Below, in pieces: positions 1 through 46,056 of a DNA stretch of 64,000 bases. Position 1 is the first letter of the stretch. Every line of letters starts with the position of its first letter. This stretch comes from Psammoneis japonica. Lineage: Eukaryota. The notes beneath the pieces were generated by a model. It saw only the letters and a program-made list of their open reading frames with translations. It did not search any database and had not been told where the DNA came from. The stretch is from positions 372,001 through 436,000 of the forward strand of contig QPGO01000020.1 in NCBI GenBank assembly GCA_008632985.1. The letters run 5' to 3'. The position numbers and the translations under genes were made by a program.

Positions 1-129
1 GATGTGTTATGATTTGCATATGGTACTCACAAATGTTCTGTAACCATTGCTCTCTTCCAACACACCAACACGCAGACTTGCTCATGTCGACGGCGGGCAA
101 ATTAGCGACAAGCATGGCGAAGCAACAAG

Positions 130-1465
130 CATTCGAAACCGTAATGTAATTTTCATGCCGCAAGTAGGATTTCTCGTGGAACTCGAAAGACACCACTTGC
201 CACCCCCTGTGCTACCCCCCACCGAAAGCTGATGCAAATGATACTTCGTCCCCGGATGCCGACGTACACCCGGGTCTACCGCCAGATTTTGATTTTATCT
301 TTTCCATTGAAAACAAGCTTTGTTTCAAGAGAGATTGGGAATTTGGACGCCACCATCAAGGACTTTATTAGTATGGTCATCACAGAGCTTGAAGAAGACA
401 TTCTTGATTGTGAAACAGAACTTCGAAGTACCTTTGGAGCGCTTGCTGAACTCGACTGTATTCTTTCCTTTGCATGCTACGCCGCCGACAACGACTACAA
501 CAGGCCCCAGTTGCTCCCCATTGACCAAAAGTGTATTCACATCAAGAATGGCACTCATCCGTTACAAGAACTCATTGTAGACGGTGAATTCATTCGGAAC
601 GACACAAGCATGAACGGGGAACAGAGTCGTGTCAATATCATTACCGGACCCAACTTGAGTTGCAAGAGTTGCTACACTCGTCAGGTTGGAATGCTTGTGT
701 ACATGGCGCATATTGGATGCTACCTTCCCTGTGATGCTGCCAGGATTCCATGACGGATCAGATTTCTACGTGCATTAGTGCGGCTGAAACTTGCTTGGTG
801 CCCCACTGCAGCTGTCAGCTCGATCTGACGCAGGTAGCTTATATTCTTTGGAGGAGCACCCAATCGTCGCTTGTGCTCATTGACGAATTTGGAAAAGGTA
901 GGCACAGACTCTCTGGAGGAATCATGGTACAAAGTACTTCTAGCTGTTCGACACTCAACTCGTCTTGTTTTCCTTGCATACTTACATCACTGAAGGCACA
1001 AGCGCGTTTTTGGCGGCGGGAATTAACAAACTTTCGCGCATGAAATGCAAAGTCATTTGCACGACCCATTTCCTGGAAGTCTTTAGCTTGGGATTGCTAC
1101 GGGATGGCGCGGACGGAGTTTGTGCCCACCGAATGACGGTATACATTCCAGAGTCAAAGAGCGAGGACGAAGTAGAAGACTCTGGCGCAGCACCCTTATT
1201 CAAACTAGAGCAAGGCGTTGCCGAGTCGTCCGCAGGGCTTGTGTGTGCCGAGAGAGCCGACGTAAACAAGAAAGTCCTAACCCTTACCGCTACCAAAGAT
1301 GGACGCACCGTGCAACCGCTCCAAGAAAGCATGAATCTCTTAGAGCTAAAGCCAGAGGTGCAGGACGTCTTGCGCATGTTTCTGGGAGTCAACTCATAGG
1401 CAAATGCCACAGACGAACAGCTTCACGTGCTGGAACGTAAACTTGCTGTTATTTCTATCCCGTAG
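130..1465 (+). pseudogene. MSH5: MutS homolog 5 (MSH5) C-terminal half, disrupted
   Basis: Motifs IFMPQVGFLV, HIKNGTHPLQE, IITGPNLSCKS..QVG..VYMAHIGC, SLVLIDEFGKG and CTTHFLE match the MutS ATPase region, MSH5-type. Walker A GKS reads CKS. Frameshift near 750, probable intron ~898-995, in-frame TAG at 1397-1399 with reading continuing to a stop at 1463-1465. Confidence 0.8.
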
Positions 1466-4400
1466 TAGGGGCGTCGTAGTTGGGGGCAGCTTGTGCAGAC
1501 AACAAGTAGACAAGACCAAGACATGAACGAGTATGGGGGATCAATCCAAGGATTTCTGTTTTTCTTTTTGTGGCGCTTCTTGTGTGGGAAAAAGCGGCAC
1601 TTGTAGATGAGAACGCTGTAGCCAGTGTTGTAATTGAAGGGGCCTCTCTATCACGACATGATGGAGCAAGGGTATACTGAACCTTTTACATGCAGCTTCA
1701 ATCGCGAAATGGTCTTGGAACTCTCGCCACGGTGTAGCATCTCTTGTTCTCTTGTGTGAAAGTCGGTGAATACAATCATATGTCGGATGCGAGTAGCTGG
1801 TCTCGCACGGTGCTCTGCCCAGTCAGAATACGATATCCATACATAGCACAAGGTGGGTTACCTCTCTGCTGAGATTGTGCAATAGTACAGAGACTAGAAG
1901 TTACGGTGTTGACAATAAGATACTCGATACGGTAATGATAAATTTGTGAGAAGATTGTCGATCGTACTCGCTACAGTACTACTGTTGGTACTTTCATCCT
2001 TTTGGTTCCCGCAAGAAACACAAGCAAGGCAAGATATACGCGAGAAGATTCCAGCATAGATGCTGTAAACTGAAAAGCCTTTTACAAGTAAGGTAACAAT
2101 CCGACTTTTCAATTTGGGGGTGCTGCAGAACGATGTTCCGCATCAATGCTCGTAGCGGAGTGAAACTCCGCCGTCACCGAGAAGACACTGAACTTTGCAT
2201 CGACAATTGCACATCCCAAACACGAGCAACAATGAAGAGAAGGGATGTTCCAAGAGTGAGGGGCTGTGACAGTTCTGCACATGCATTCGCATCCAGGGAA
2301 TTGGAGCACATTTTCACCACAAGCGCAGCAACAATTGCAAGCGCCTGTCTCAATGTCCTGCTCAGATGCCATGCTCTTAATTCACATTAGAGGATCAGCA
2401 GATGGAAGGACAAAGAGCTGATCAACGAAGGGTTCAATGCAGCCATTTGAATCATGAGATTGTCAATGGCACTCTTGTTCTTGAGCTTGATGCAGCTTGC
2501 CTCTTGGTGCATGCCGGTGCAAATGAAGTGAACAAACTCATGCAGGGCCATGAGAACATTTTGGCAGCCACTGTTGAAAAGATTGAAACAATTGACAGTG
2601 CACAACTTGCAACTGTCCCACCCTTCCGTGAGGCAAAGCTTGAGAGAGTTGGTTTTCTCAATGAGAGCATCAACCTGTTCCTTGAGTTCTGTCACCTTCA
2701 AGCAAAGCATGGGTGTTGGCAAGCCCGTCCATGGCATCTTTGCGAATCATTGATCTGGTGCCAGTGTCAAATTTCTTCAAACAGTTTTGTTTTGACTGGC
2801 TGAAAAATGAGAAATTCCAACAGAAGGATGTCAAGCTCATGCGCACAGGTGGCAAGAGAAACTTCTTGGCACAGATGCAGTTGTGGAAGTGCTTTGACTT
2901 GCCCGTTGGTTGGCATTTGTTCTTCAGATTTTCAACACCAGTCTGCTGTTGGAGCTCATCTCCAAGGTCCAACAAGTCGATTGCACTGGTTGGGCAAAAG
3001 GCAGAAACAATGTCAACATCGACCTTGGTGGGGTGCTTGCTCCCTCAGAAGGGACCAAGCTATCAGAGGCAGCTGGGGGACAAAGCAGTTGTTGGAGAGT
3101 CAACATCTCTGGTGGCTTGGGAAGGTTCAAGGCCATTTCATGAAGCAACTGAGTGCATTCTTCAAAAAGCTCCATGCAGTCAATTGCCCATTTCTGTTTT
3201 TCAGGCACAACTTGGCTGCCTTCACATTGAAGTCATCCTCAAGGGTGTGGAAGAGCTTCTTCTCACCTGCCCCACTCAAACAAGGACCGCTGAAGTTGTC
3301 ACTCATTGTGGTCTGTGGAGTGGAATCACCATTCCTTTGGGGACTGATTGCGTGGTCCTCATGAATTTCATCATGCTTGCCACTTGTTCTGCTGGAGTGA
3401 GTGGACAGAGAGAAAGTGGTGTCTGCATCGTGGAAGGGGCAAGCAAGGTGTGAGACAGGTGTGGTGCCAATCTTTTGGGATGGAGTGTTTTGCCACCAAA
3501 CAACTTGTGCTCCTTCACAGCCTGTTTGTTTGATTGGCCAACATCTGCCACAAGTGTTTGAGTGGGTTTGGGTCCTTGCAGCCACAAGGTCAAAAGTGTC
3601 CGGGGCATGACGTCCAGCTGCAAGGTTGCAAATGCCAGTTTTGCCATGATGAGTGCTGACAATCTCTTTCTTCAAAAGCAAAAATGCAGCCCCACAGTGA
3701 CCAACAAGCATGACTTGGGAGACCAAAGCCAGCCATGAGATGTGCGCTGACAAAAGTGCAAAGCCAGACTCAAAAGCCAGGGCACTGCAGATGGCCTCAT
3801 TTGGCAGCCACAGAAATGGCTCCGCACCAGTCCTCTGAGTGACAAGACAGACATGCTGCAGCTGCAAAGGGTGCAGTTGGGCCTGCTGTTTTCAATCCAG
3901 AGCACCTTGAGGTCAACAAGAAAGGCAAGGAGATCTGAGAACAGAAAAAAGCACAGCTTGCAACAGACCCCACAGACAAGCAAAGCTGGTTGTTGTTGAA
4001 AACCACAACAAACCTGACAGCCCCCAAGTGGAAACAGAGCTTGGAGGATGTTTTGTGTCTTGTTGGCCCTGTGTGTTTGGCACACCTGTCAGTTGCTCTG
4101 GTGGGCACAAGGCAGCAGGGAGTGGCGGCTGACAAAACTTGGCTGCAGCTGACAGCTGACTGAGCATTTGTTGCGCCAGAAGAGCCTTTGGTTTTCCACT
4201 TTGAGAAGCCCATTTGAAAGGAGAAAAATGGCAGTTGTGGGCCGTTGCTCTAACCTGATGTCTGAGGAGCTTTTGCAACAGGCAGAGTGGCACACAACAC
4301 TCCCAAAGAGCTTGCAGAAGTCTGCACTGACATTGTTGACCAATGTGGACTTCGCGCAAGCAAATTTGTGTGATTGGGATTTACAATGACCTGTTTGGCA

Positions 4401-4554
4401 ACCACGCAACACAGCAATGCTGTTGCGCTCTTGTTGTCCAGCAACAGGTTTTGGTGTTGCATCAATGATGGGGCAGTGTCATCATGGCCATGCTGTTCAT
4501 CCTTGGTGACATTGTCAGAGAGCAGCAGTGGCAAAAGTGCCACGACAAGCACAA

Positions 4555-4745
4555 ACACCTTCTCTGCTTTTGCCAACTGCCAACAGCCTTGAAGAAAAGA
4601 AGACGCAAATGGAGTGACGTTTGATCAAGGGAAAAAGCACTGGAGGCGTCGTGGCAAGTGAGTTTGGGTGATCTCTTGAGCACAAACAAAGAAATTCGTG
4701 ACAGCATGCAGGCTGCACTCCAAGATGGAAAGGCACATTTTGCAT
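4555..4745 (+). repeat. Dispersed repeat/gene fragment, hypermutated copy
   Basis: Aligns by eye to 12380-12612 (ccttctctgc..ttgccaa..agccttga..aatggagt.acgtt.gatcaagg..gtgatctcttgag..caaa.aaagaaa). Confidence 0.8.
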
Positions 4746-6786
4746 TCTCATTGCTGCAGCAATTTGTTGATGGCCGGTGGCACTGTGACTCACAGAGAGC
4801 AGAGGCAAGACTTGCAAAGTGCTGATCTTGACTTGTCGTCTGCATCACCACGCTTGTGACACAACAATGGGGCGAGCAGCACGGGCAAGATCAAAGTGGC
4901 AATGGCATGGCATCTGTTGTCAATTCCGTGCAACAGACCAAGAACTCACTCCAGGCCTCACAAGTCTCAACAGGATTGGCACATTGAGTCACGGTGATTC
5001 AACAGTGTTTTGGTTCTTTGTCTCTGTGTGGAGATTGCAGAAGCATCTGAAAGGAATGCTGCAATGTGTCAAATCAATGGTGCAAAGTAAGAAACTGCCG
5101 CAATTGGCATGTTGGCAGTGAAGCAGTGGATTGCATGAATGCGCTCATGCATGCAAGAAATCATTCTGTTGCTCTCCGTGACAGTTCCACTTCATCTCTT
5201 TCTGGATTCACCCACCAGAGATCCAAAACAGCAGCAGTTGGATGGGATGTTGAATGTTGTGATCAGGTGAGACAAGGAATGTCCAAAAAGGAGAAACACA
5301 AGAGACATGATTGGCTGCCATTTTAGACTGCAAGTTGTTGTTGTTGATGCCAGGCATTGGTGCTGTTGCAGTTGTTTTCCCCGTGTTCTTGTTGATGTTC
5401 TCCTCTCCTCTCATTCAGAGAAACAATTGTTGGATTTGACATGGCACACCCGTTCAATTGGGGTCTCATCACTGACAGACTTTGGAAACTTTTGCCAGAA
5501 ATTGTTGTGCAGAATGGATGACCACCAGCAACCAGGGAGTCAAACCCATGTCAGACAAATGTCCATTGTTTAAAGTGGGAGGCTGTGGAAGATCACAGGG
5601 GTTGCATCACCGCCTTTGCATGTGAGACTTTCCAACCACTTGTTTGAGCCAGTTGATTGGAATTTGTCATGTTGGTGGAAAGTGGCAAAAAGTTTTTTTG
5701 TGGTGTTTTGCAATTTGCACACTTGGCTTGAATTGCTGCCAACAGCATGGGGGAGGACAATTGTGCCCATGCATCAATTGTTGCCACCAAATCTGAATTT
5801 TCCATCCCAGACTTTCTTGTCAACAAGTGGATGGCCCACAATGCCCACAATGCACACAAGACATTCAAGCTTCCACTTTGTGAGGTTGGCAAAGTGTGGA
5901 AAATGTTTGCCCGTCTGATCTTCACACACAAGCCTGTCTTTTCAGCAGCCACCACACACCAAAGAAAGTCTTTTATTTCATGGTCTTGCCAGGGCAGATG
6001 ACAAAACAGCTCAACTTTTGAAAGACACAACCAACTCCTCTGGGAGCACTGCTGCTCAGCATTGCACTGATGCTGACATTCAAACAAAAACTCCTTTTTG
6101 TTGATGAAGAAAGCACAGACACTTTGGAGCTGAATTGTGTTGGCTCAATGACAAAACAGTCTTGCGGGCAGCTGAGAAAATTGACATTGATTGTGCATTG
6201 CTTTGTGCTGATTGCAGATTGCAAAGAGACAACACTGAGTGTGGCATCACTCAGGTTCAACTGCACTGCAATGCTCAGGGAATGCAGCCACATGTTGTTG
6301 ATGCAGCATGGTGGCATGTTTTGGCCTCATGAAAGCAACACACAAAATCCAACATGGAGCAATGCAGCACAGCTCTGAACCTTGCCAAAAGAGCTGGAGC
6401 ATTTGTCAAGAAAGCCAAAGATGGGCAAGCTGACTCTTCTGCCAAGACCATGACTGCACTTGCTTCACTCATCACTCCTTGGGGTTTAGATGGCTCCACT
6501 TGTTTGAAGAACCGTTGAGCTCAATTCCTGCACATGTTGGTGTTGGCACAAGGAAATCATTGATTTTGCACTCAAATTTGCTTTTCTTTTGTGTTTCAAA
6601 GGGGTTGGTTGTGTCACAGCTGAGTTGATTAAGAAAAAGCTGGTGTGTTTGCCAATGTGTTCATGTCAGTTGGTCCAACAAGGCAGATCTCTAAAGTCTT
6701 GCAGCAGCGGCAAAAGATTGAAGAATCAACCTGCTCTTCTTTGCCACCTGCTCATCAGTCAAGTTCCACAGAGTGAGTTGAGAAAG

Positions 6787-7452
6787 TCATGAATGACAAA
6801 GATGCCACTGTTCAATTTGTTGAGCCAGCTGCAGGAGACCGGGGCAGGGGGGGGAGCTGGAGAGGACAGCAACATTGGTGGCGGCAAGGAAGGAGTGCAT
6901 GGAAGGGGTGCTCTTGGGACAGGCAGAGCTGGGTGCAAGTTCAACACTGACATTGGCTGGTCTTTTAAGAGGATGGCCAGAAAGGAGGCTGGTGAGCTCA
7001 AGGAAGACATGGTGACGGGAGTGGCAAAGGCCAGAGAGCGGGGCTGCAAGGTTTTGGATGACAATGGAGATGGCATCTTGGATGTGATTTGACAAGAGCC
7101 CTTTGTGCATCTTGGAACATGTGAAAGCATGGTTGCCAAAGGGGTTGGGAACATGGTGACCGTGACCACAGGGGCAGGGGAGGTGGCAGAGAGGCTGGGA
7201 GGGGCGGCAGGGACGGATGGCTTGTGAAGGTTGTGGAGGGCAGCCAAATTGGGAGGAAGAGAACCAATTGGCTGGATGGGCATGAGATGGGGTGTGGAGA
7301 CAGAGGCTTGTCAAGGGAGAGAGCAAGGACAGAAAAACTGGTGGGAGGTTCAGATGTTGGAGAAGCAAGGGGGGGAGTCTCTTGCTGGCGATGATGCAGG
7401 TGGGCGCGCTGATCCAAGCCACAAAGGTCATGGTCTGATGCAGCAGGTGCAA
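6787..7452 (-). mobile_element. Non-LTR retrotransposon 3' fragment (zinc knuckle plus restriction-like endonuclease region, CRE/NeSL-like)
   Basis: Translation CPCG..NPFGNHAFTC..KG..NHIQDAI...E...KRPANVSV resembles the CCHC knuckle, RHN/RD and RPAD (PD-(D/E)xK) layout of RLE-type non-LTR elements. Confidence 0.55.
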
Positions 7453-7825
7453 GCAGAAGAGTCAAGGGAGAAAAGGGTGGGAGAAAGGAAGCGAAAAGTG
7501 CTCGCGCAAAGCGGTTTATGTGACTCCAGCTCTTCGGCCAGCTTCTTGCTCTCTCGAGACTCGCGATAGCTTCAGGCGGCGTTTTGTGACTCCAGCATTT
7601 CAAAAACCCTACAGTACCGCTTTGACGTGAAATCACACAAATCAAAGCTATGGAAACCGAAAGAGATTGACTCCTGACTAATAGTTCTAATTACGGGTGT
7701 TAAAGGAAAAAGTGCCATGCTATCAACAGAACGATAGTCTTTTCAGGACACGCGATATGAAAAATGGCTGAACACTTGGCGTCCCCCACAAGTGTATGGT
7801 ACAACTAACCACACCCTCAATATTC

Positions 7826-8491
7826 TCAAACGTCAAACTGCGGCTCCAGAAGTAGATAATGCGCAAGTCGTGTCTTCAGCTGCTCAAGAGAATCCCTCCC
7901 CTTTGAGGTTTTAAGCTTTGGCTTATCTCCGTAGAGCTGCCGGAAGTGCTCTTGCGTAAAGAGTGCCCGAAACGCCGGGTTCTCGGCATAATTCTCTCGC
8001 CTCAACGTGAGCAGTACTTGGATGACCTCGCTTCGACTGAGCGCCTTGATATCGGAAAACGACTTTATCCCCACACGTTCTCGAGCTTCCTCCACTGTCA
8101 GCGCAGCAAATCCAAGTCGTTCCTGCTTGAGCTTCTGGAGCTTTTGGTTGACAGCATCTCGCTTCTGCGCTTTCAGCTCCTTGTCCTTGGCGGCGAGCTC
8201 TTTGTCCTTTGCTTGTTCCTTACTCGTCTTTGCTTTTTTTCGACTAGGATTAAGCGAGGCTTCCGCCGAAGCTTGCGCAGGCCCAGATTCGCCGTCTCCC
8301 TTGCTTTCAGAAGCGTCTGTCGTGCTGGACAAAGCTGCCGCCGTGTCGTTGATGCTGTCACCAGAAGCATCCGCCTGAGGTTCAGCGGTCTCTGGTGGCA
8401 CTTCCGGCGGTGCTCCAGTTGCATTCGCGCTTTGCTGCTCGAGTAAGGCTTCTTCATGTTGACGTTTCGCTCTTGATTTTATAGACATCAT
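7826..8491 (-). CDS. Hypothetical protein (~220 aa; acidic low-complexity N-terminus, Lys-rich coiled coil)
   Basis: Long ORF with normal composition. Start placed at the ATG of MMSIKSRAK; no recognised domain. Confidence 0.6.
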   Translation of the reverse strand: MMSIKSRAKRQHEEALLEQQSANATGAPPEVPPETAEPQADASGDSINDTAAALSSTTDASESKGDGESGPAQASAEASLNPSRKKAKTSKEQAKDKELAAKDKELKAQKRDAVNQKLQKLKQERLGFAALTVEEARERVGIKSFSDIKALSRSEVIQVLLTLRRENYAENPAFRALFTQEHFRQLYGDKPKLKTSKGRDSLEQLKTRLAHYLLLEPQFDV

Positions 8492-8914
8492 GATTGAATA
8501 GCAGTAAGAAAGAAGAAGCAAGGAAACTTTGCACCATGATCCTGATCCAAGCATTACCGGAACAGTAAACAGTAAGGCACGGAGAAGCCCAAGTGGGCGT
8601 CAGCCACACATTTTTCTGTGGTACAAGTCTACGTGAAGACCATACCGATGTTAAGTAGATGGTAACCGGCTAAATGGGCCATCGCGTTTCGAGAGACCAA
8701 TCGTCGCTGAGCATACCAGTACCATGAAAATGTGTCCTGTGTTTGCGGGGTTAAGACAGCGTAAAGCCGCTCTATGGTCGACTCTGCGACATAAATGGAT
8801 GCACATATACCGGTAGTAAGCGATCGTTACTATCCTGCAAAAGTGACTGCTTGTCTTTGCGACGTTGTAGCCCTAAATCGATAGGTGGAAAGTAGAAACA
8901 ATCGCATAAGTGCA

Positions 8915-10539
8915 ATGTATTCTCTTCGTCAACGAAAGAAGCACCGGGTCGAAACGCTGGTGAATGACTTGGCAGAGTACCTCGTGCAAAGCGAAAACGA
9001 TGCGGAGACGTCTTGGCAGGACACGCTGAATTTGCTCTTGAACGAGGAATTGTTGACTAACGAAGCAGCGCCTGAAAACGAGGATGAAAACGATGGTATG
9101 GAAGGAATGATAAAGCTGGCAGCAGCCAAGTGCAAGTCGCTGCAGAGATCAAAAGCCGAGAACGAGACTAAGGCTTCGAAGAGAGCTTTAGCGGACGACG
9201 AGAAACGAGCATCGGCTGCAGCTGCCAAGTCGTTCTCTCTCTTTGATAACATCGGAAGCTTTTCTCTGGACGCATTTGTGACTGCCGACCAGCTAGAGGA
9301 GGCGCAAGAACTCTCCACCTCCTCTGCTCAAGACCACGTGCTCGTTCTGTTGGAGAAGGTACAGCACGTGGACGATGTCATGCACTCATGGCAGGATATT
9401 GTGCTACCGTCCGTCTCCAAGGGGATCAGGTGCCAACTTACTAAACACCGCTACATTAAGTTGTGCCGCACGTGGTTCTTTGAACAGTTGGACAATCGGG
9501 AAATGGAGCGCTTGCTCGCGAGAAACGACTTGTGCCACGTACTTTCTTTCGCCATGCCGCTGCATACAACTCATGATGCTTTAGCCACAGAGGCAGACTT
9601 TTCCATTCAAATTGTCCAGTTGTGGCATGATATGTGGATGGCAATCCTGCCGCATTATCCCACCTACCGAAGAAGGAGGAAGAGAATGGCATGGAGCGTT
9701 GTATCTTGCGGCAATTTTCCTTGTCTTCGTCTGCATTGCCGTTGCTCTTGGCCATGGTGGATGAGTACGCAACGTGGTTCACCTGTTGGGCTCAGCAAAT
9801 ACAGCCCCTTGAGCTTTCCAAAATGTTGTGTGAGTGCCAGGAGCTGATACCGTACCTATTGGAGCATGGGCGTTCGCTTCAACCCACTCGTGTGCCACCC
9901 TCGCTGGCGACGGAAGCCAACGTCCACAATGTCTTGGCAGAAGCAATATTGGTACAAGCTCTTTGTATGTTACGGGGTATTTTGATTGTGACGAGGGTGG
10001 TCTTGTTTCCATGGAATCTCGCACTACCAAAAGCGGAGGGCAAAGAGAGTTACGTCTCAGTCTTCACAACGATGGATCCGACGCCAGAGCAAGCCAACCT
10101 TTTTGTGAATTTGTTTGCACACGTGTTGCGCATTGGAATGTCACAGTCAAACACAGTCTCACCGCAACTGGCACGAACTTGTGGAGAAGCGATTACGGTT
10201 TTGCTAATGGGGTGTCGTCATCTTGACGAAGTCATTGAGGGGCTTTTCGACACTGTAACGAAACGATTGCTTGTTGTTGGCAGCAGCAAAAATTCAGGGG
10301 AGGAATCACCAGATACGATCATGCTATGTCAAAGCAGATGCGCGTTGTTGCAGTTGTGCAATGACGTATTGCAAAATGAACTCGGAACCGACGCCCAGCG
10401 ACAAGTGCTTATCAAATCTGTCGAAGGAGCCCTTCGCAATTGGGTACAAGGGAACCTAAATCGTGCTATGGAGACTGCAGACGAGGTGCAAAATGTAATG
10501 GAAATGTTGCTGTACGAGAGCGCTTTAGTTTTAATGTGA
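8915..10539 (+). CDS. Hypothetical helical protein, split by one frameshift near 9660
   Basis: Two overlapping long ORFs (8885-9847 and 9634-10539) with protein-like composition that join by a frame change; no clear intron at the junction. Confidence 0.6.
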
Positions 10540-11389
10540 GCGAGAGCCCGCCCGGGCGAAGCTGTGCCAGACCGCTCGCTCCCACGGTGGAATAAATACG
10601 GTAGCTATAAAGGGACCTTGAATTTTTCTATCGGATGCCATACGGTACATAGGTGATACGGTACATGAACTCGCAAGGTTGTCTCGTTTGATTGTTGGCA
10701 CAATCCTAGAGGAAACGAACAGCAGTATTCCCTGTGCCCAAGGCCACTGCTCACAGCCTCCTATATGGCCCCACGATCGTCCTGTATTACCGGTAGTGAG
10801 CCCCAGTGTAGCAGTCAAACCACCCCGGCAGGCCAATGAGCTTCTTGATGACTGGATCGCCAGGAAAAAGTTGTGTGTCCTGAAATTCACACAGAAACTC
10901 TATATTGTCGTCTCGGCGCTTGACTACATTGATTTCGTCCGTCAAGTTTAGTTTGAAGCGCAACGACGACTTCCGTCTCTTGTGCTGCCAGCTGACATCG
11001 ATTGTCTGCTCGTTCTGCACCAACTCCAAAGGCTACTCGAGTAATGCCCAGAAAAGGAGGTGGCGTTACTGCAGCTTTTCTCTAGCTAGAGAGCTCGGTA
11101 TTCGTGAATATTAGCTTGGCGGCAATCCCACGCCTGCAAAGCTCCATTGATCGCAACTCGTCTTGACCAACTTGATGACCAATGAGCATTTGAATTTCGC
11201 GCGAGGTACAAGTATCTGCAGAATGAATCGATCGGACAACAGTCAAGGCACGGAGCACAATAAACTAAACATACACACAAGCTAGTTGACAAAAATAGAT
11301 TTCTATTTTACTTTCATCATTTCCGTTGTAATCTGTGACTGACTCTCGGATCATCACGATGAAACCCATCTGAGTTCTTCATGCGTCGT

Positions 11390-11917
11390 CTAAACGAACT
11401 GAAGCTGTGCGTCACCGCTGAGCTTGCGAGCAAGATAGAGGAAGGGCGTCTCACAGTTGAAGTCCATCTTAACGGAGGTGTCATAGTGCTGGAGGTTCTT
11501 CTTGCGGTGGAAGAGGGCAGGCCTGTCCTTGACTTTGCGATCCTTGATCTCGACCTTGTTTCCGGCGATAACGATCGGGATATTCCCGCGGCGGAACGTG
11601 ATTTTGCGGTGCCAGGTGGCCACGTTCTTGTACGAGAAACGGGATGTCACGTCATACATGATCATGGCGCACTGCCCCCCGGCGAAGTATCCGTCACGGA
11701 GATATCCGATCTTCTCCTGCGTGTCCCAAACGTTGAACTTGATTGGACCTCGGTTCGTTTGGAATACAATCGAATAGACTTCCACATTCAAAGTCGCGAC
11801 GTATTTCTTGTCGAACTTGTTCGCCAAGAGATGCTTCACTAAGGACGTCTTACCGACACCGCCGTCACCGACGAGGATGAGCTTGAACTCGGGCATCTCT
11901 GGCTGCTGGGTCGACAT
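11390..11917 (-). CDS. RAN: Divergent Ran-like small GTPase (possibly a pseudogene or pseudo-GTPase)
   Basis: [62 protein letters not shown] and PFLYLARKL are Ran-specific. G3 DTAGQ lacks AG and the C-terminal acidic tail is absent. Intronless. Confidence 0.85.
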
Positions 11918-12379
11918 GGTTGAACCGGGAACGGTTGGTGCTTGCTGCTTGATGAAGCCTTCTCTGCCTCGCCGATAGCCTTGAAGAAGAAGAAGAAGAA
12001 GAAGAGAACCCAACGAAGAGATCTTTGATGCGTTCAGAATCATTGTAATCTCTCTTTTTTTAGTCCAGTCCAAGTGGTTTCGAGTGAGGGTTGGGCGGAA
12101 GGCGTGACAAATCAATGCCGGCATTGCCGTGTATGGTACGTAAAATGGATACCTTTTAGAAAGGGTGCTGACCGCTTAATCGGGTGCTTCCAAAACGTTT
12201 GATTTCTGGTTGCGCTTTTGCTGCTTCAAGGGTGGACTTAAAGAAGGCGAAGCATTCCGTCCTGGAAAGTTTAAGCTCAACTTCAGCTACAAGGCCACCG
12301 CTGGAACCTCGAGGCCCTACGAGAGTTGTTGATGCTAGTTGGCTGGCACCAAGAGATGTAATTCGGCCTCCTTGAGGAT

Positions 12380-12612
12380 GACGCCTTCTCTGCCTTTGCC
12401 AATAGCCTTGAGGAAGAAGGAGAAGAACCCAATGGAGTAACGTTCGATCAAGGAGAAAAAGTAGAGGCCTGGTGGCAAGCGAGATCCAGCCACTTTGCTA
12501 TCTGGACGACAAAACGACAAATTCCCAGTGATCTCTTGAGTGCAAATAAAGAAAATCGGGATAGCCTACAAGTACAAGTTACTGCAATCCGAGATGGAAG
12601 GGTATGAATTGC
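12380..12612 (+). repeat. Dispersed repeat/gene fragment, unmutated copy (shorter third copy at ~11955-12025)
   Basis: Homologous to 4555-4745 but retains TA and CG. Translates as DAFSAFANSLEEEGEEPNGVTFDQGEKVEAWWQ. Confidence 0.75.
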
Positions 12613-15303: not shown

Positions 15304-18300
15304 ATGACTCGATCGCCTGCTAATTCGCCGATTCACGGTCGACGCGTTCACGAAGAAGAAACAGTCATTGCAACGCCTCTTTCGCCGAGAGAAGGGAGTG
15401 TCATGACGCCCTCCGAAATTTTGTTTAAAAATTTGAGGCCCTCGAGGCGCAGTGGGCTCGTCAAAAGACGCATGGGAAGCGCTGTGGTGATGAAATTCAC
15501 AAGCGGCTCTGGAAGCCTCGTCTCGACTAGTTCAAGTTGTTGGAACCCCGGACGCTTCGTCTACTCGCCGATACGAATCATTAGCAACACGATCCGTTTA
15601 TACAACAGGATGTATTCCCGAATCATCAAGCGTCTTTGATAGATTGTATTCTCACGGTAAATCACAAATGAAGGCAAGAAGACGACCAGATCGGAATGGC
15701 TTGCATTCTTCAACTCGCTCTCTCATGACACGTCAACGCGAAGCCCCGTCCATCAACGCATCCACCCTATCTTCTATATCAGTTGGCGAGTCTTCCTCTG
15801 TCTTTGAAAGATTGTACAGCAGCCCCAAAACGAAAACGAATCAGCATGAGAGAACGCCGCGTACGGAACAGAATGCGACATCATCGTTGGAACGCCGGTT
15901 GTCCTACACGCCATTTCCACTCAAGAAGCAGAAACCAAAAGAGCTGGACACGCATAATCGTGGCAGAGACGATGACGACTCTTCTGTCTTCAACAGGCTC
16001 TACCGTAATGAGAAAAGGAAAGAACGACTCTACCACTCACCACCAGCACCAACAATTAGGTCCTCTCGGCGAGCGGTACCTCGTTCAAGCACGCCGCCAA
16101 CGAAAATACCCAATCAAACGACAGCTTGTGTCGTATCCCATAATTTGCCGCAACAAACAAAAGAACAACATGCTGCTCTAACCATCCAAAGATTCACCAG
16201 ACAAAGACGACAGCAAGCCTTGGTGTCCATCAGCATTAGAACTTCCACACAGGCAATAGATGAAGCTGGGGTTGTCTCTTTGATCAGACAAGCAAGTGCA
16301 AGACGGATTCAGCGTTGGTTTAGGTACTGCATTCGCTACAAGCGCTTTCGTGAACAAAGCAGAGCATCCGGGATAGTCCCACGTCGCCGGCTCCTGTTCC
16401 CAGATGATGTCCACTACGCTGCAACCATTATCCAGTGTGCATGGAGACGTCACAAATCACTGATTGCGATTGTTTCAAAATGCTTACAGTCGTGGGAGGT
16501 CCTATTTGGTTTTGAGAATGGTCCCGTGTCATCCAATCGCATCTTGGCTCTAAAATATGTTGTACTGTCCCTTTCAAAGCCATTGGACTTGTCAATTGTT
16601 GGTGGATCACAGAAAACTTGAGGCTCAAATTCACCTGCGTTCAAATGGAATGGGAGCGCGAGGTGTGGATTCATTACGAGGAAAATGGCACGAATCATCG
16701 ATTGGAGAGCTGCGTCGTCAGCGTGAAGAGTATTGCCACCCGCACCCTCTTTCTAGACAAATGGAATCATCAAACGATTGCCATAATTTTGGTCAAGGCT
16801 TGTCTCATGCGAAAGCTAGAAGAATGTGAGGGGCGTTTGCACCACAATGCGGCTCTCTTGATTCAAACACGTGTGCGTGTTCTGCTTCGAAATAGAGTGG
16901 AAAGGATATCTCAGCGAGTGGAAGTTGAGCCGTCAATGTCGGGCCGAGCGTTCGATGCTAATGGGTACTCCAGCATTACGGGCAAAAATGCAATTACTGG
17001 TGATGAGAGAAGCGCTATCTTGATTCAAGCTGCGTTTCGGCGCGGCTTGGCGTTTCGCAAGTTTAGACGGGTACTTCGCGGTGTCACCCTCCTTCAAAGA
17101 CTGTGCCTTGAACGACAGTCACATTCCTGTCCACCTAGTCTTCAACAAGACAGCGCTGTCTGTGTAATTCAACGACGTTGGCGCAGATACATTTCTGGCA
17201 AAAGACAAAGATCATGGTATCTAGCAGCCGTCATTGTTCAAAGGTGGTGGAGAAGATCTGCTTATATGAATCGTGAGTTAGCCGCCGTTTGCATTCAAAA
17301 ATGGCAACGTCGTTTTGCAGTGCGAAAGAATTACGAGCGTGTGGTGAAATGCTGTGTGCTATTACAGGCACTATCGCGTGGGGCTCTGGCACGTAAATCG
17401 ATGGCGTTTGGAAAAGAGTGCGCCACTTTAATACAGCGAACATACCGCGGGTTTCGAGCAAGATCATTTGCAGCCCGAAGAGTGAAAAGTGCTCTAGTAA
17501 TCCAGTCTTTTCTGCGAAGAGTTTGGAGTCCAAGAATGCGCGCTGAAACGCGTGGAACGACCATCGCACTGCAGAGTCATTGTCGCGGTGTTCGTTTGAG
17601 GAGCGAGTTGCACGCCGTGCGAAGGGCGACCATTCGTTGGCGTATGCATAGAGCAGAATCATCAAAACACGCAGAGCTACTCAACATTAGAACAAAAAGA
17701 GTGGAGGCTACCACTACTATTCAGAATCATTGGAGGCGTTCTCTTGCCTACCGCCACATGCGGCAGCTTAAGTCAATTGTTGCGATCCAACGGTGTTGGA
17801 GACGGTTCTGGGTCCTGAAGCTTATCAAGACATCAGATCTGCAGCTGTCTTGATTCAGAGTCACTTTCGTTCTTGCTCGGCCAAGCATAGCTACAACAGT
17901 CTAATAAGCTCTTGCGTTCTTGCGCAGGCTACTATGCGAGGATGGCTGTCTCGAAGAAGACTCGTTTACGCATCCAATGCTGCCATCACCATTCAACATA
18001 AATGGCAGGAGCGTAAGGCTCTTGAGTTGCAAAGGGAATCTTTTTCGAAAATTCAGCATTGGTTAGTCTATGTGATTGCACGACGAAAGTGTCGCGAGGC
18101 TGCTATATGTATTCAAAAAAGCTGGAGACGTTTCTGGGTGCTGACGCTTCACAAACACACCAGATCTGCGGCTGTCTTGATTCAGAGTCTTTTCCGTTCT
18201 TACTTGGCCGAGCGAAGCTACAGTAGTCTTATAAGCTCTTGCATTGTAACGCAGGCGATTATGCGAGGCTGGTTGTCGCGAAGAAGACTCGTTTTACAAT

Positions 18301-21300
18301 CCAATGCTGCAATCATCATTCAACATATATGGCATGAGCGTAAGGCACTCAAGCTACAAAGAGTATCTTCTGCGAAAATTCTGCGTTGGTTGCTCGATGT
18401 GGTTGCACGACGAAAGTGTCGTGATGCCGCTATCTGTATTCAGAAGAGCTGGAGACGGTACTGGGTACTGAAGCGTTACCATCTTGCCAGATCAGCCGTT
18501 GTCTTCATCCAGAGTCTTTTCCGTTCGTACGTAGCCAAGCAGAGCTATCTCAGACTCGTAAGCTCTTGCGTTCTTGCACAGGCCATGGTGCGAGGGAGTC
18601 TTTCGCGAGGAAAACTCATTTACGAATCCAACGCTGCCATCATTATTCAGCAACAATGGAAATTCATACGGAAAAGAAAAGCTTTGGAGCTACAACGAGT
18701 ATCTTCTGCGAAAATTCAGCATTGGTTGCTCACTGTGATTGCGCGAAGAAAGTGTTGTGATGCTGCTACTCGTATTCAAAAGAGCTGGAGACGCTTCTGG
18801 GTACTGAAGCATTACAAACACACCAGATCCTCAGCTGTGTTGATTCAGAGTCTTTTCCGTTCTTGCGCAGCCAACCAAAGCTACTACAGTCTGGTTAGCT
18901 CTTGCGTTCTTGCGCAGGCTGTTGTGCGAGGAAGGCTGACGCGAGGAAAACTTGTTTACGAATCCAATGCTGCCATCATCATTCAACGTACATGGCAAGA
19001 GCGTAAGGCACTCGAGCTACAACGAGTGTCTTCTGCGAAAATTCAGGAGTGGTGGCTCGATGTGATTGCTCGACGAAAGTGTGGGGAAGCTGCCACTTGT
19101 ATTCAGAAGAGCTGGAGACGTTTCTGGTTACTGAAGCTTTACAAACACACCAGATCCGCAGCTGTCTTGATTCAGAGTCTTTTCCGTTCTTACGCAGCCA
19201 ACCAAAGCTACAACAGTCTGGTAAGCTCTTGCGTTCTTGCGCAGGCTATTGTGCGAGGAAGGCTGACGCGAGTAAAACTTGTTTACGAATCCAATGCTGC
19301 TATCATCATTCAACGCACATGGCAAGAGCGTAAGGCACTCGAGCTACAACGAGTGTCTTCTGCGAAAATTCAGGAGTGGTGGCTCGATGTGATTGCTCGA
19401 CGAAAGTTTTGGGAAGCTGCCACTTGTATTCAGAAGAGCTGGAGACGTTTCTGGTTACTTAAGCTTTACAAACACACCAGATCCGCAGCTGTCTTGATTC
19501 AGAGTCTTTTCCGTTCTTACGCAGCCAACCAAAGCTACAACAGTCTGGTAAGCTCTTGCGTTCTTGCGCAGGCTGTTTTGCGAGGAAGGCTGACACGAAG
19601 AATACTCGTTTTCCAATCCAATGCTGCCATCATCATTCAACGTAAATGGAAAGAGCGTAAGGCACTTGAACTACAACGAGTATCTTCTGCAAAGATTCAG
19701 CTGTGGTTGCTCGATGTGATTGCACGACGAAAGTGCTGGGATGCTGCTATCTGTATTCAGAAGAGCTGGAGACGCTTCTGGGTACTGCACCGTTACGAAC
19801 ATGCCAGATCAGCTGCTCTTTTGATACAGAGTCTTTTCCGTTCTAAAGCAGCAAGGCAAGGCTACAACAGCCTCGTAAGTTCTTGCATTCTAGCACAGGC
19901 CATTATGCGAGGAAGGCTGTCGCGAAGAAGACTCGTTTTACAATCCAAAGCTGCCATCATCATTCAACATAAATGGCAAGAGCGTAAGGCACTCAAGCTA
20001 CAACGATTGTCTTCTGCGAAAATTCAGCGTTGGTTGCTAAGCGTAATTGAACGACGAAAGCGTTGGAATGCTATCATTTGTATTCAGAAGAGCTGGAGAG
20101 GGTTCTTGGTACTGAAGTATTACAAGCACGCCAGATCTGCAGCTGTCTTGATTCAAAGTCGTTTCCGTTCTCACTTGGCCGTGCAAATCTACAACAGCCT
20201 GGTAGGGTCATGCGTTCTTGCGCAGGCTATTATGCGAGGAAGGCTGTCGCGAAGAAGGCTCGTATCCGAATCCAACGCTGTCATCGTTATCCAGCAGAAA
20301 TGGAAATCCATGCGGAAAAGAAAAGTTTCTGAGCTGCAACGTGTATCTTCTTTGAAAATCCAGCATTGGCTGTCCCGTGTAACTGCACGACGAAGGGATG
20401 CTGCAATCTGTATCCAGAAGGGCTGGCGTGTCGGACTGGCGACGCATAAGTTTCGAAGGCTCCGTAAGTCCAAGAATGCGGCCGCTACATTGATGCAGGC
20501 ATGTTGGCGAAGCCATGCTTCCGCAAAGAAGTCAATGATGATGGTCGAAGCAGCTGTAACGATCCAACGCTTCTGGATAAATCATGACAAAGTTCGATTG
20601 GCCGCCACCAAAATCCAAACTCTGCATCGCCGACGAGTTGCTCAGAATATGTATCAAATACGAATCCATGCGATTGTCCTTGTGCAGTCACATTGGCGTG
20701 GGAGATATGAAAAGATGAAGCTGCAGCTTAGTAGTCGCTTTGCTACGAAGATACAGAGCGTCTGGCGAGGCTCACAGATGAGGAAGTTGCTCAAGCGTGA
20801 GCGCGGAGCTGTTGTGTTAATACAGGCGTTAATCAGGAAAAGGCAAGCCATGAAGTATGGAGAAATTAGATCAGCCGCCATCCTAATTCAAAGCCTTCAG
20901 CGTCGACGAGTTGCACATAATGTGTATCAACGAGTCATCCACGCGACTATGTTCGTGCAGTCGCATTGGCGTGGAAGATACGATAGGATAGATTTTCAGC
21001 TTAGTCGTCATTGTGCTACAAAGCTACAATGCTTCTGGCGAGGCACACAAACGAGGGCAGTTCTCAAGTGTGAACGTGACGCCGCTGTGTTGATGCAGGC
21101 CATTGTCAGAAAGAAGCAAGCCCTAAATGTGTATCGACGACAGATTCAAGCGATTGTACTCGTGCAGTCACATTGGCGTCGGAAGCGTGATAGGACGAAG
21201 CTTCAGCTTTGTCGTCACCATGCCACAAGGGTCCAGAGCGCTTGGCGAGGCTCACAGACGAGGACATTGCTCGAGCGTGAGAGAGGCGCTGTTGTGTTGA

Positions 21301-22405: not shown

Positions 22406-22639
22406 GATGTTGGCTCCGCAGAAGTGTTACTTACGCAGTCAGTGATTTGCCTGTGTTTTGTTACGACGGATGTCTACACGCTGAGATTAATGCAAGATTA
22501 GAGTAAGAGTTAGAGGAACTCCCTTTACTCATTAGACAAGCTTGCTCTAAGTGATGGAGCAAAGTGAAGACCGGCTCCTCTCTAGAGGGGCTACGAGTAC
22601 CTCTCTAGCTAGCGAGAGATTTTCTTCCGATACTTTTTT

Positions 22640-25600
22640 GTTGAGAGATGATGGGGACCATCGATTGAGTCGAGTGAGTCAATTTGTCAATTTCGTTCAA
22701 CTCGCAACGATCAAAGCATTGGTGAACATGCGTTGGAACCAGTCAAAAGTTGTTACTCCATTGTTTGTCAACATGTGCCCAATTCAAGAGGCACATCACA
22801 GTAATTCTCAGCCAAGTTGGCTGGTGTGTTTTTTCTTGGCACTCTTTGAAGCCAAATTAAAATGAGGGCAATGGTGCCAAAGAAATTGTTGCTGCATTGG
22901 CCAGCTGAAAATGATGACAGTGCCAAAGAAATTGCTGTGCTGCTCAATTGTGCAGGTGGCTGGTTTGTGTGGTGTGCTTCATTCAATTTTCTCTGGAAAG
23001 CTTTTGGGCATGACATCAACTGAAATTTTGGGCATGGCATCAAATGATTTTTTTTTAGATTGTCACATCATGTTGGAGTTGTGATGACTTGTCTCACCCC
23101 AAGCATGCTTTTGTGGCCAGTTGAAGAGCTCCAGCTGAACTTCCAGATGCAATGGTCTCAACATGCTTTGGTTTGGTTCAGACCCAGATCTCATTGACAA
23201 TGCTTCAAGGCTTCTTGACTCACCAGAAGTGAGTGCATTTTGAGCATGTCATGTTTGCTTGGAGCAATGTTGAGCTGAACAGACAGCTCCTGCCATTTGA
23301 GACATTTTAGAGCATGCCCAGTTGTCAGCACAGCTTCATCCCACACAGGAAACCTCATCCTGAGTCAACAGTCTGCTGCATTTGCTGCCAATGGTGATTC
23401 AAGCATCATGCCCTGTGCTTGCCATTGGAACTTTGATGACAGAGAAATTGCTGCTCATTGTTTGAATGAGCATCACGAACTTGGCAAGCTTGTCAAAGCA
23501 TCGTGAACTGTGTGTGCTCTTATTTTGTTTGAAGCTGAGCGCTTTTGGCATTGCTTTTCTGTGAATTTGGGAAGTTTTCCATGGAAACCTGCTGCAATGC
23601 CCCACCAAAGATCCTGTCAGCCCAAAATGCCTGACAGCAGCCAAATGTGTGCAAATTCATGCTCTCATCTGCGCAGGACTTCGCACATGCCTGAGAGGTG
23701 GCCAGCTCCTGGTGAAGAGAGACCTGTGAAGAGATGGAGGAGGTGCTGTCATGGCCATGCCCTCCCATTGTGTCACCATTGTGTTTGTTCACTCATTCAA
23801 GCCACAAGGTCAACCACGCATGACAACAGGAGTCCATCATTGCAGCCACATGCAAGCTTGCACTGGCAAGAGCACACAAAAGGAGACCGACAAACAGACA
23901 GAACTGTGTTTTCTTTTCCATGCTGTCATTTCATTTGTTGTCTCTCAAATCCATGCCACTTCCAATGATGGGATTGGACTCTTGGTCTTTCCTCAGAATT
24001 GGGCTCAGCTCTGATGACACCATTGCATGGCTCCGTTGTTCTGATTGCATGGCCATGTCCCATTGTTGGTTGGCAGGCAGTTGCATCTGGACTCTGTTTC
24101 CCCTGTGAGCTTGCCCATGGCCTTGAGTTTAATTCCACAATGAACTTCTCTTCTCAAGAAGAGGCACTCACATTGCTTTTGGAAACATCTGGAGCAACAA
24201 CATTGCTTCTTTTCTTGACCTGTGACTCACATGCACACCATTTCTTTGCACTTGTTTGGAGCCACTAAAACAACTGTCTGCCCCTCTTGAGCACCCCAAA
24301 TGCAGACAGTGCAAATGTTGTGCCCAGCTGTTTGCCAGGATTGGAATTCAACAAGATTGTGCTGGCCACTTGCGTGCACAATGTCAATGAGATTGGCATT
24401 TTGAAAGTGCAATGTGCAAGAAGACTCGTCCATTGGGAACAGTGGCCTCCAATGATGACAAGCACAAATGCAGCTTCTGCAAAGGAGCAAGAAATGCTGT
24501 GCAAGGATGCCAGACAATGAGATTTGCTTTGCCAAGAATGACTTGGCCATTTGTCAGAAGGCCCAAGTTTTGTGCATGGGCATGCTTGGACCACACCACC
24601 GCAATGGCTGTAGAAAAAACACAGGATGCATCCAAAGAAAAGCTGCTGTTGCACAATGTCTCACCCTCCATTTTTCTTGCTTGGGGAAACAGCCAACAGG
24701 ATGCAAAAAAAGAGCTGCACATCACTTTCAACCCAAGCAGAAAATGGTCAACGTTGAATGTGTTGAGATTGTTTTGATCATCAGGTGCTTGAATTCAAAA
24801 ACAAGGAATCCATTGGCTGTTGACAAGCATGTGAGATGTCCTCACATTGCATGGTGCAAGCACTGGTTGACAAGATTGAACAAGAAGAATTGCATGGATG
24901 ACACTCACTGGACAAAGTTGGTGCTTGATGGACCATGCACTGAATTGACAAAGGCTGTGTTGCATCTGCAAAAGGTGCAAGTTTCCACCAAGCACAGTTG
25001 AACATGCACAGCTTGAAAACTTTCTGCACGCCTGCCAAATGTTCCTGACACAACCATGCCATGTTTGTGAAACCCCAACTGAAAACTCTCCAACCAGAGC
25101 ACAGGTGTTAAGACCATCAAGTGTCTTGCTGCAGAAACAAGACTGGATTTGTCTGCACTCCAAACTCCACACTGTCCACCACTCAATGGTGCTTTTCAGT
25201 GCAAAATGGAATGTCAAGTCTGACAGGACATGCAAAATTGGTGCTTGAGATGGACCACATGCTGAATTGACAAAGGCCATGTTGTGAGTGTGAAAGGTGC
25301 GAGTTTCCACCAAGCACAATCAGCTTGAAAACTCTCCACACACCTGCCAAATGTTCCCAACACAACCATGCCATTTTTGTGAAACCCCAACAGAAAACTT
25401 TCCAACTGGCAAAGGTGTTAAAATCATCAAGTGCTTCATTGCAGAAACAAAACTGGATCCGTCCGCACTCCAAGTGCCACACTGTCCATGGCCAATGGTG
25501 CTTTTTGGTCCAAACTGGAACATTGAGTCTGTCGCAGAGTTTTCAATCCCACAAAGCTGACTCCAAAATGTTGAATGCAAAGGCACATGTTGTTGTGCAT

Positions 25601-30865: not shown

Positions 30866-31819
30866 GGTAGAGTGATTGTATCTCATGGTTTGTTGGTACA
30901 TCGTGGATGTGATTGATTTTGAAAGCATCGTGAATTTGTGTGGTCTTTCGAGCGCTGAGATTTTGGCGTTGCAAGCAAGGTTTGTGTGACTGCGGATTTA
31001 TCGTAGAAACGTACGAGGGTGTCGTACCACAATCTTCTTATCAAAATGTCCGATCGCCAAAAATAATATATTGTTTAACCAAAACTGTATAAAGCATTCG
31101 AAAACCAATCCAAAAAAAAGAAACCGATGAAAATTGTGATCACCCCGTGCCTCATAAGTCGCCTCTCTAGTCTCTAGCCGACGGTAGCTACAGTACTGTA
31201 GAGCGGGTCTCTCTAGTGACAGAGGAGGTTAGCGCCACCTCTGATTAATAACATCGAAAGGATCTCGATGCGTCTTGGAAAGCTGACATTTGTCCTTCAT
31301 TTTAGTCCATCGTAAACTGCTTCAAAATCATTCAAGAGAACTTTGGTTTTACGTAGCTACGTGTACAGTAGGACCCTACTATTCTTATGGCTGCCCAACT
31401 CGCTTTCATGCACCAACTAACTGGATTATTAAAGTACCGCTAAATGAACCACCAGTGCAGACTACGGGCTCCCTCGATCGAAGCGAGTCCGGCTCTGACT
31501 ATTGCTCCCGCAACAAGCCTTTATGCACTTGCCTTTAGCCTGACGGCACGGAACAAGTCGCCGTCATACAGAATGAACTGTGCATTTCATTTCCATCCCT
31601 CTCTCTTTGGGCCACTAGTAGGCAACATATAGTTCGTGGCATCTTCCTCCTTAATTTCGGTTCCCTTCTTATTCGCCTCGCTCGTTCGCTAACTAGATAG
31701 GACTATGGAGTGGCTTATAAGCAAAAATTGCGAGTTCTAAATTGAGAAAGCTCTGCTTATAGACTACCCTACGCCATTCAGAGATAGAGTTCGCGTAAAT
31801 CTCGTCATCCAGCGGGTAC

Positions 31820-39151: not shown

Positions 39152-39347
39152 CGTCAGCCTGCTCATCCACATGTCGCACGATGGACAGACTGGGTGCGGA
39201 TGATGGCTGGGCCATTTAGATGGACGAGCAGATCTCTCTGAGATCTGCTTCTCACTTTCTCATCTACCAGCACTCGTGTCATCACAGTCCTGGCACTTTA
39301 GGGAGTCTTTCACACCTCCATCATCATTGACCTTTGGCATTCTGTCA
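39152..39347 (+). repeat. 5' LTR (196 bp)
   Basis: Direct repeat of 46421-46616 with 17 substitutions and no indels; ends in ..TGTCA. Confidence 0.95.
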
Positions 39348-39357
39348 GGTTGTGGCC
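39348..39357 (+). promoter_or_regulatory. Primer-binding site (copia-type, tRNA-iMet fragment)
   Basis: GGTTGTGGCC directly after the 5' LTR resembles the copia-type PBS GGTTATGGGCC, with TA changed to TG. Confidence 0.65.
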
Positions 39358-39527
39358 TTGCGCTGTGCCACAGACCTCTGCACCAAGCTTTCCGTTTTGA
39401 TTCATTTGTTTTGTGAGCTGATCGAGCAAGCCTCATCTCTTGTTCCCGGAAGGATTTTTATCTTGCTTTCCCGGCATTTTTCACGACCATAGAAACATGC
39501 CAGATTTCCACGTGTGCATGACCAAAA

Positions 39528-41486: not shown

Positions 41487-41594
41487 GTTCCAAGGACCCC
41501 AAGGGTTGCTCCCACCCCATCATGAAAACCCTGAAAATCCACCTCAGTCCAGTGCTCCGCCCTCGGATTTTCAATTGGGCCGCTGCAGCTAGTT

Positions 41595-46020: not shown

Positions 46021-46056
46021 TTGACATTTTTTTTCGCGGTGGCATGGACACTTGTC

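Follow-up and report, generated by a model that had tools for sequence, protein, structure and literature searches.

In a 64,000-nucleotide stretch of the genome of the diatom Psammoneis japonica (the window; contig C21, positions 372001–436000, in an assembly of 597 contigs and 91.4 Mb), the dinucleotide TpA (TA) has been converted to TpG (TG) or CpA (CA) inside sharply bounded blocks, and both the direction of this change, TA loss inside blocks, and its dependence on position are in our judgement nearly certain. Comparison of the sequences further shows that the change is symmetric on the two strands, depends on the block and not on the sequence, age or deadness of the copy, prefers 5′-TAY-3′ with A as the altered base, and proceeds at a rate far above background without strand-coordinated runs. 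The focal evidence comes from two homologous fragments of a SOUL gene, of which one lies inside a depleted block and the other outside.

The observed/expected (o/e) ratio of TpA is about 0.5–0.7 in genic DNA versus 0.0–0.15 in four blocks, which together occupy 31 of the 64 kb, roughly half of the window. Inside the blocks CpA+TpG is up to 1.5–1.9, and CpG is down to 0.02–0.8. The first block (domain 1) has a TpA o/e of 0.01–0.06, as compared with 0.5–0.7 in the DNA around the outside copy, and holds 12 TA in all between 2154 and 7516. The left edge, at about 2100, is marked by a fall in TA from 7 to 1 per 100 bp, and on the right TA reappears at about 7520. The TA-normal DNA carries host genes recognized through Pfam (MutS, GTPase, IQ-repeat protein, NDH2, kinase and ceramidase), and a copia element sits inside a depleted block. 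The blocks and the focal fragments are located as follows.

About 2150–7510, 22500–30400, 38700–52300 and 58000 to the end: the four TA-depleted blocks of the window, defined by TpA o/e.
2150–7510, no strand: domain 1, depleted in TpA and CpG, a mosaic made up of duplicated pieces of host genes and a multi-copy repeat.
4555–4745, plus strand: the inside copy (W4555), a SOUL fragment with zero TA; similarity to its relatives spans about 4182–4779.
11951–12000: a second, 50-bp piece of the SOUL fragment, between the GTPase gene and the outside copy.
12380–12612, plus strand: the outside copy (W12380), a dead SOUL gene fragment from the 5′ exon; gene similarity extends to about 12994.

The homology of the two segments, on which the original prediction was built, is confirmed: 4555–4697 aligns with 12381–12524 at 70% over 151 columns (E 8e-14), and, past a deletion in the inside copy, the alignment resumes to about 4745/12612. 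TA occurs 10 times in the 233 bp of the outside copy and is absent from the 191 bp of the inside copy; seven outside TA have an aligned inside base, and all seven read TG or CA inside, as had been claimed. Since TA-normal copies of the family convert 9 of 64 gene TA sites to TG/CA, seven out of seven would be expected by chance with a probability of ~1e-6. A genome search with the segment returned 13 matches, and a wider search found more. An open gene is present at four loci, L002–L005, which form two near-identical pairs 85% apart; it begins with a signal-peptide-like sequence and encodes a SOUL haem-binding domain (PF04832). Both window segments, like nine further loci, are broken remnants of this gene. 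A Tudor-like domain was considered for the segment and rejected, the parent gene being SOUL. W12380 and W4555 are cousins, not parent and daughter; an insertion is common to W12380, L006 and L009, and a deletion to W4555 and L007. The outside copy keeps 8/15 gene TA and 14/27 gene CG, and the inside copy keeps 0/7 gene TA (six to TG/CA) and 3/15 CG.

The window pair by itself is insufficient to polarize the change; the intact genes and other copies are needed. The intact SOUL genes L002–L005, which serve as the outgroup called for in the original prediction, have TA at the sites, like the outside copy. For six of the seven sites the genes or further TA-normal copies read TA, giving TA loss inside as the direction; this direction and the dependence on location both pass the outgroup test. 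All six changes quoted in the prediction are present in the sequence and four of them stand, whereas caaaTAaag and ttCGatc are not rooted, the outside copy having changed there. At caaaTAaag>caaaCAaag, read as a loss inside, the genes, L011, L079, L009 and L007 all have TG, so the outside copy gained TA. At ttCGatc>ttTGatc, read as CpG decay inside, every other aligned copy reads TG, so the CG was gained by the outside copy. Across eight TA sites conserved in the genes, two inside copies keep 0/8 and 0/8, and four outside copies 6/7, 6/7, 4/5 and 3/4. Some ancestral TA were resolved in both directions among inside copies; GATA, for example, became GACA in W4555 and L007, and GATG in the copies L080 and L081.

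The wider family permits location to be separated from age. Eleven pseudo-copies were examined and nine counted, L009 and L012 being left out as near-identical twins of L008 and L011, and the sites scored were TA common to both SOUL gene types. A copy was classed as outside with TA-normal DNA on at least one flank and as inside with both flanks depleted; 'location' in this sense is co-occurrence with TA-depleted flanks. The outside copies keep 8/15, 5/9, 3/6, 15/17 and 14/17 (45/64 TA, with nine to TG/CA), versus 0/7, 1/30, 3/9 and 1/9 in the inside copies (5/55, with 44 to TG/CA; Fisher p 2e-14, a value that overstates independence because ancestry is partly shared). TA retention thus follows flank composition, in line with the prediction that location rather than sequence decides. 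Divergence at non-TA, non-CG sites is 0.048–0.077 inside and 0.072–0.143 outside. Being no higher inside, it indicates that the hit copies are no older, and older age is ruled out as the cause. Separately, the SOUL pseudo-copy at L079:1500–3000 forms a 1.5-kb TA-normal island in depleted DNA, with TA loss mostly at one end; it may be a young insertion or a protected patch.

The other pieces of domain 1, the reciprocal control and the remaining features used below are as follows.

1–2100, plus strand: MutS-family gene, TA-normal, the reciprocal control.
2281–3461, minus strand: hit fragment of an SPX/cytidylyltransferase gene, with a TA-normal parent on contig C1 (L019); 1/32 parent TA kept.
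4837–5137, no strand: hit fragment, whose partner on contig C39 (L078) is TA-normal; 1/9 TA kept.
5535–6843, no strand: hit fragment of a 793-codon host open reading frame (ORF) on C21; 0/41 TA kept, 39 to TG/CA.
6883–7149, no strand: multi-copy repeat; all four other copies fetched (L082–L085) are in TA-depleted DNA.
11390–11917, minus strand: Ras/Rab/Ran-type GTPase gene; its likely start is about 460 bp from the outside copy, which lies upstream of it.
39153–46616, plus strand: copia-type long terminal repeat (LTR) retrotransposon in a second depleted block, which served only for comparing and dating copies.

The parents of the domain 1 pieces (SPX/cytidylyltransferase, SOUL, the C39 piece and the 793-codon ORF) are TA-normal, including the parents L022/L025 of the 793-codon ORF, which have no Pfam match. 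The MutS gene of the window is likewise TA-normal and has 60/73 TA in common with a second copy on C1 (L015, 87%), and TA is erased in the MutS duplicates on C36. Over eight parent/copy pairs, 8 of 270 TA are kept and 230 read TG or CA, divided into 119 TG and 111 CA. Domain 1 was also considered as one element with terminal repeats and rejected, none among the longest 25 of 163 inverted pairs being convincing.

The mutation spectrum defines a two-sided context. Per strand, A>G affects 239/543 A after T (0.44), as compared with 76/1038 after A, 82/1051 after C and 59/988 after G; the rates of 0.06–0.08 after non-T bases include a small V-A-Y leak off TpA. On the 3′ side, A>G declines from TAC (0.61) through TAT (0.43) and TAG (0.33) to TAA (0.26), and the off-motif sites show the corresponding bias (V-A-Y 141/1327, 0.106, versus V-A-R 76/1750, 0.043; p 2e-11), whereas a gene-versus-gene control has no 3′ bias (0.041–0.058 across the four 3′ bases). 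TA survivors in the window blocks are enriched in YTAR, with a relative survival of 0.53 for TTAA and 0.00 for ATAC. AA is not favoured over CA/GA (76/1038 versus 141/2039, p 0.71). C>T occurs mostly at CpG (301/776 before G) and is lowest of the four contexts before A (58/1035); the C>T at CpA and the TA gain typical of repeat-induced point mutation (RIP) are not seen. Non-CpG C>T is 0.056–0.082 in hit copies versus 0.025–0.040 in the gene control. The TG and CA outcomes form no strand runs (p 0.26–0.78), which fits accumulation one at a time, and the surviving TA are not clustered (p 0.14–0.60).

Copies of the copia element provide the timing. In an alignment of 14 copies, 111 of the 170 columns with at least one TA show both TG and CA. 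Two copies (L029 and L030), whose best self-match was not an LTR pair, were left out of the LTR totals. The 12 remaining LTR pairs, with 2327 sites, differ by 73 TG<>CA, 25 TA<>TG/CA and 20 CG-class changes, by 12 other transitions and by 10 transversions, giving 98 TA-type versus 22 other differences; four TA are common to both LTRs. On the assumption that the two LTRs were identical when the element inserted, TA survival is no more than 16%, other transitions amount to 0.26% per LTR, and the ratio is roughly 350. The LTR comparison thus shows that the TA change follows insertion, independently in each copy, at a rate some hundreds of times background and above CpG decay; the copia copies keep 6–19% of TA-type columns versus 50–75% of CG columns. 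At three element ends TA resumes 28–50 bp from the LTR, and most other ends pass into further depleted DNA. In two metagenome scans with the copia frames, none of the 66 and 597 pattern matches was confirmed as a related locus.

We infer that the blocks are heterochromatin, and their CpG decay suggests that they contain 5-methylcytosine (5mC). The explanation that we prefer, to which we give an even chance, is A-to-I deamination by a deaminase in the DNA of silenced blocks. The mutator would act at the DNA level, turning TpA into TpG or CpA (A:T>G:C at T-A) on both strands of sharply bounded silent blocks, and its target would be whatever lies in the block, dead host-gene copies included. The enzyme, a zinc-dependent deaminase with either the TadA/ADAT2 or the editase fold, would be recruited via a chromatin mark or an RNA guide, and inosine would be fixed as G at replication, which the seeming absence of an AAG/MPG glycosylase would favour. 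Mutations would accrue singly over many divisions until TA is exhausted, killing transposon frames on the way, and the outside copy would be spared by its place between genes, just upstream of the GTPase gene. A deaminase is preferred because the two-sided context is common to on- and off-motif sites and because AA hotspots and tracts are lacking. Laboratory TadA base editors prefer T on the 5′ side of the target and a pyrimidine on the 3′ side; we take TadA itself to have a preference resembling TAY, for which our literature search found no confirming passage. More tentatively, and with somewhat less than even confidence, we propose that diatoms, perhaps the stramenopile–alveolate–rhizarian (SAR) protists broadly, possess a natural chromatin-guided DNA adenine deaminase that targets 5′-TAY-3′ without homology sensing. 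With the same reserve, such an enzyme would edit native or foreign DNA in silenced blocks and constitute a defence of opposite chemistry to RIP, as well as a natural analogue of the adenine base editors used in the laboratory.

Candidate enzymes were sought in the genome exon by exon, a procedure in which a negative does not prove absence. The PF00383 profile gave nine matches, which from their sequences were labelled as dCMP deaminases, TadA-like, ADAT2-like, a deaminase–dioxygenase fusion, a further small deaminase and RibD-like; none was recognized as ADAT3-like. The editase domain (PF02137) occurs in two genes. A Bd3614-type search recovered loci already found and nothing more, and a MafB19-deam search gave no new locus. 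The ADAT2-like gene, on contig C26, contains an HxE-PCxxC motif and has Asn at the position of TadA D108. There are five Y-family polymerase loci, Rev1- and Pol eta-like among them, and 27 matches to C5-methyltransferase (PF00145), one of them beside a chromodomain. No match was obtained for AAG/MPG glycosylase, nor for the Tet/JBP family at E≤0.1. As side observations, L044:313–1785 is a single frame of 491 codons that joins a zinc deaminase domain to a DIOX_N/2OG-Fe(II) oxygenase, and L040/L043 (C41) has tandem dCMP-deaminase domains, apparently of one gene. At L057:1231–3508 a chromodomain ORF is followed directly downstream, in the same orientation, by a C5-methyltransferase ORF, and the chromodomain protein is a candidate reader of a histone mark on the blocks. 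C5-methyltransferase copies, some with stops, are found in TA-erased DNA at L054, L055, L056, L060, L063, L066 and L067, and were possibly carried by a mobile element.

Several observations weigh against deamination or against the comparisons on which it is built. The pseudo-copies are not fully independent, with indels common to L011/L079, W4555/L007 and L080/L081. A>G and T>C are indistinguishable from sequence. L081 has lost 8/9 TA yet kept 11/13 CG, and TA and CG retention are uncorrelated in the 14 copia copies (rho 0.18, p 0.53), so that 5mC need not be the guide. The deaminases found belong to ordinary families without a chromatin-reading Pfam domain, and no distinctive enzyme stands out among them; the second editase is conserved across diatoms and has no extra Pfam domain among the 120 of 246 matches listed. 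The Asn that the ADAT2-like gene has at the TadA D108 position is commonly conserved among ADAT2 proteins of eukaryotes, and the context in which amphioxus ADAT2 preferentially deaminates A is GAA, not TA (both from the accessible part of PMC10354150). Furthermore, the genome has a homologue of endonuclease V.

The closest known system is that of Bigelowiella natans (B. natans), in which Mettrop et al. (bioRxiv, 10.64898/2026.01.13.699255, accessible part) measured TpA-only A:T>G:C hypermutation de novo in integrated DNA of nucleocytoplasmic large DNA viruses (NCLDV) as well as of virophages and proposed ADAT2 as the enzyme. As in the diatom, TpA goes to TpG/CpA on both strands, the change is confined to regions, leaving TpA-poor, CpA+TpG-rich clusters, and repetition of the target is not needed. 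The hosts differ, one being a diatom (stramenopile) and the other a chlorarachniophyte, as does the rate over background (some hundreds-fold versus about 1000-fold in the B. natans text available). Loss is near-complete over about half of the window, whereas a B. natans NCLDV insert has a rho of 0.45 in that text. The B. natans target is viral or mobile DNA, and the diatom target also comprises host-derived SOUL, MutS and SPX duplicates; activity was measured de novo there and is inferred from sequence here. The diatom process in addition shows CpG decay and the TAY preference; the words 'CpG', 'trinucleotide', 'pseudogene' and 'diatom' do not occur in the main text of the B. natans study as far as it was accessible. 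We read the diatom process as fitting the mutational definition of the B. natans one, with a wider, position-defined target. A literature search outside most subscription journals found no diatom report of the signature. The same B. natans source, in the part available, describes ADAR hyperediting of retroelement RNA as A>G with a 5′ U/T preference. In the diatom, by comparison, the strands are equally affected (119 TG versus 111 CA), non-retro host duplicates are hit and LTRs diverge after insertion, which together indicate that the change was made in DNA.

Error-prone gap filling is an unlikely explanation of which account must still be taken. In this scheme, repair of T:G from deaminated 5mC or of other lesions recruits a Y-family polymerase that inserts G opposite a template T after a T. 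CpG decay does mark the same blocks, with C>T concentrated before G, and the five Y-family loci include the Rev1- and Pol eta-like ones. According to the accessible part of PMC6423074, Pol eta is an A:T mutator at WA motifs in antibody genes; somatic hypermutation by Pol eta resembles the diatom process in producing A>G at TA in DNA within restricted regions. The diatom spectrum, however, has no AA hotspot, unlike the WA signature, and neither clustered tracts nor strand-coordinated clusters, and TA is lost faster than the CpG that should trigger the repair. In addition, the hypermutable regions of B. natans show almost no GC>AT change in the available text (10.64898/2026.01.13.699255).

Less probable still is a lesion on the thymine side, by which the T of R-T-A would be modified or oxidized in silent chromatin and pair with G, yielding T>C. 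T>C at 5′-RTA is the same substitution seen from the other strand, and spectra cannot separate the two; thymine modification of repeats occurs in other protists. The lack of a Tet/JBP match, subject to the limit of exon-wise searching given above, speaks against it. We consider it quite improbable that no dedicated mutator exists and that adenine damage is left unrepaired in compact chromatin, with a chemical or structural context bias. The missing AAG/MPG match and the slightly raised non-CpG C>T of hit copies would suit such damage, but the TA rate in LTR pairs, roughly 350 times that of other transitions, exceeds CpG decay, and the B. natans signature arises in 11/15 lines and at TpA alone (10.64898/2026.01.13.699255, accessible part).

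A RIP-like process, in which duplication is sensed by homology and copies are mutated wherever they are located, is very improbable, and on the comparisons above the diatom process is not RIP. RIP of ascomycetes, which requires a methyltransferase of the RID/DNMT4 type, likewise produces transitions in a specific context, destroys repeats and leaves compositional blocks with sharp boundaries, and all domain 1 pieces with an identified partner are duplicates. Diatom transposons are methylated via DNMT5, diatoms have RID-related DNMT4, and a chromodomain next to a C5-methyltransferase, as at L057, is known in some diatom DNMT4 (PMC9998398, accessible part). RIP, however, makes C>T and creates TA, the opposite chemistry, and is triggered by homology, whereas in the diatom the parents are untouched (SOUL, MutS, SPX and the C21 ORF have TA o/e 0.4–0.6), which counts against a symmetric homology-sensing process, and five dead duplicates outside the blocks keep TA. 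The NCLDV target in B. natans is single-copy, according to the accessible text of 10.64898/2026.01.13.699255. The diatom copies also lack strand runs. Such strand-coordinated runs are a feature of RIP.

Reverse polarity or artefact, with outside copies gaining TA or with base-calling or assembly error, can be dismissed as having a negligible chance: one of the predicted TA sites was indeed gained outside and several 1-bp indels separate the assembly from short-read contigs, but the intact genes have TA, a single ancestral site was resolved both ways among copies, and short-read contigs over domain 1 differ at few letters. These contigs, from a separate assembly (X1) that may be of the source sample, span 1563–4122, 4124–5048 and 5066–7987 with 8, 1 and 13 differing letters; as they reproduce domain 1, a base-calling artefact for TA-poor DNA is ruled out. 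Among the differences listed within domain 1 are two TA<>TG/CA and two TG<>CA doublets, a hint of recent activity and no more. Bases present in X1 and absent from the window at 4241, 4596, 5459, 5899, 6041, 7678, 9660 and 11285 suggest residual indel errors in the assembly. A second run (X2), whose library is not on record, appears RNA-like from a GT..AG skip at 894–993; it has one contig over 12032–12715 and no depth at 2001–7500, a gap in coverage that carries no evidential weight.

With the age-matched negative control the candidate triggers can be told apart: it points to block location and not to duplication, deadness, age or foreignness, and it opens the question of targeting to a direct test by means of transgenes and chromatin mutants in a diatom that can be transformed. 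Should the chemistry be deamination, the enzyme would edit genomic adenine naturally. Action of ADAT2/3 and TadA on DNA, with A-to-I read as A>G, is the chemistry proposed for the diatom. The natural DNA A-to-I activity found in the literature is that of a single ADAT2 in another context, amphioxus BjADAT2, which prefers GAA and TCG in hairpin loops and for which, unlike the diatom blocks, the accessible part of PMC10354150 shows no regional genome targeting. In genomes with such blocks, a strong bias is to be expected in mutation spectra, in ages taken from LTRs and in analyses of codons or GC, and the loss of stop codons from TA-free DNA produces false long ORFs.

A few further observations concern the window and its relatives. 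The IQ-motif gene at 17785–20445 contains tandem repeats of about 327 bp with about 80% identity and normal TA, so that repetition alone does not draw the mutator. Near-identical gene pairs with second copies at 85–88% identity (L002–L005; window 1–1831 versus L015) suggest retained haplotigs and an old duplication or hybrid origin. Another, weak inside/outside pair is formed by 23290–23521 and 30712–30947 (62% over 246 columns). At the second MutS locus, L093 on C1, a TA-depleted block (about 1500–9000) directly follows the gene; it has the same position relative to MutS as domain 1 of the window and no similarity to it in content.

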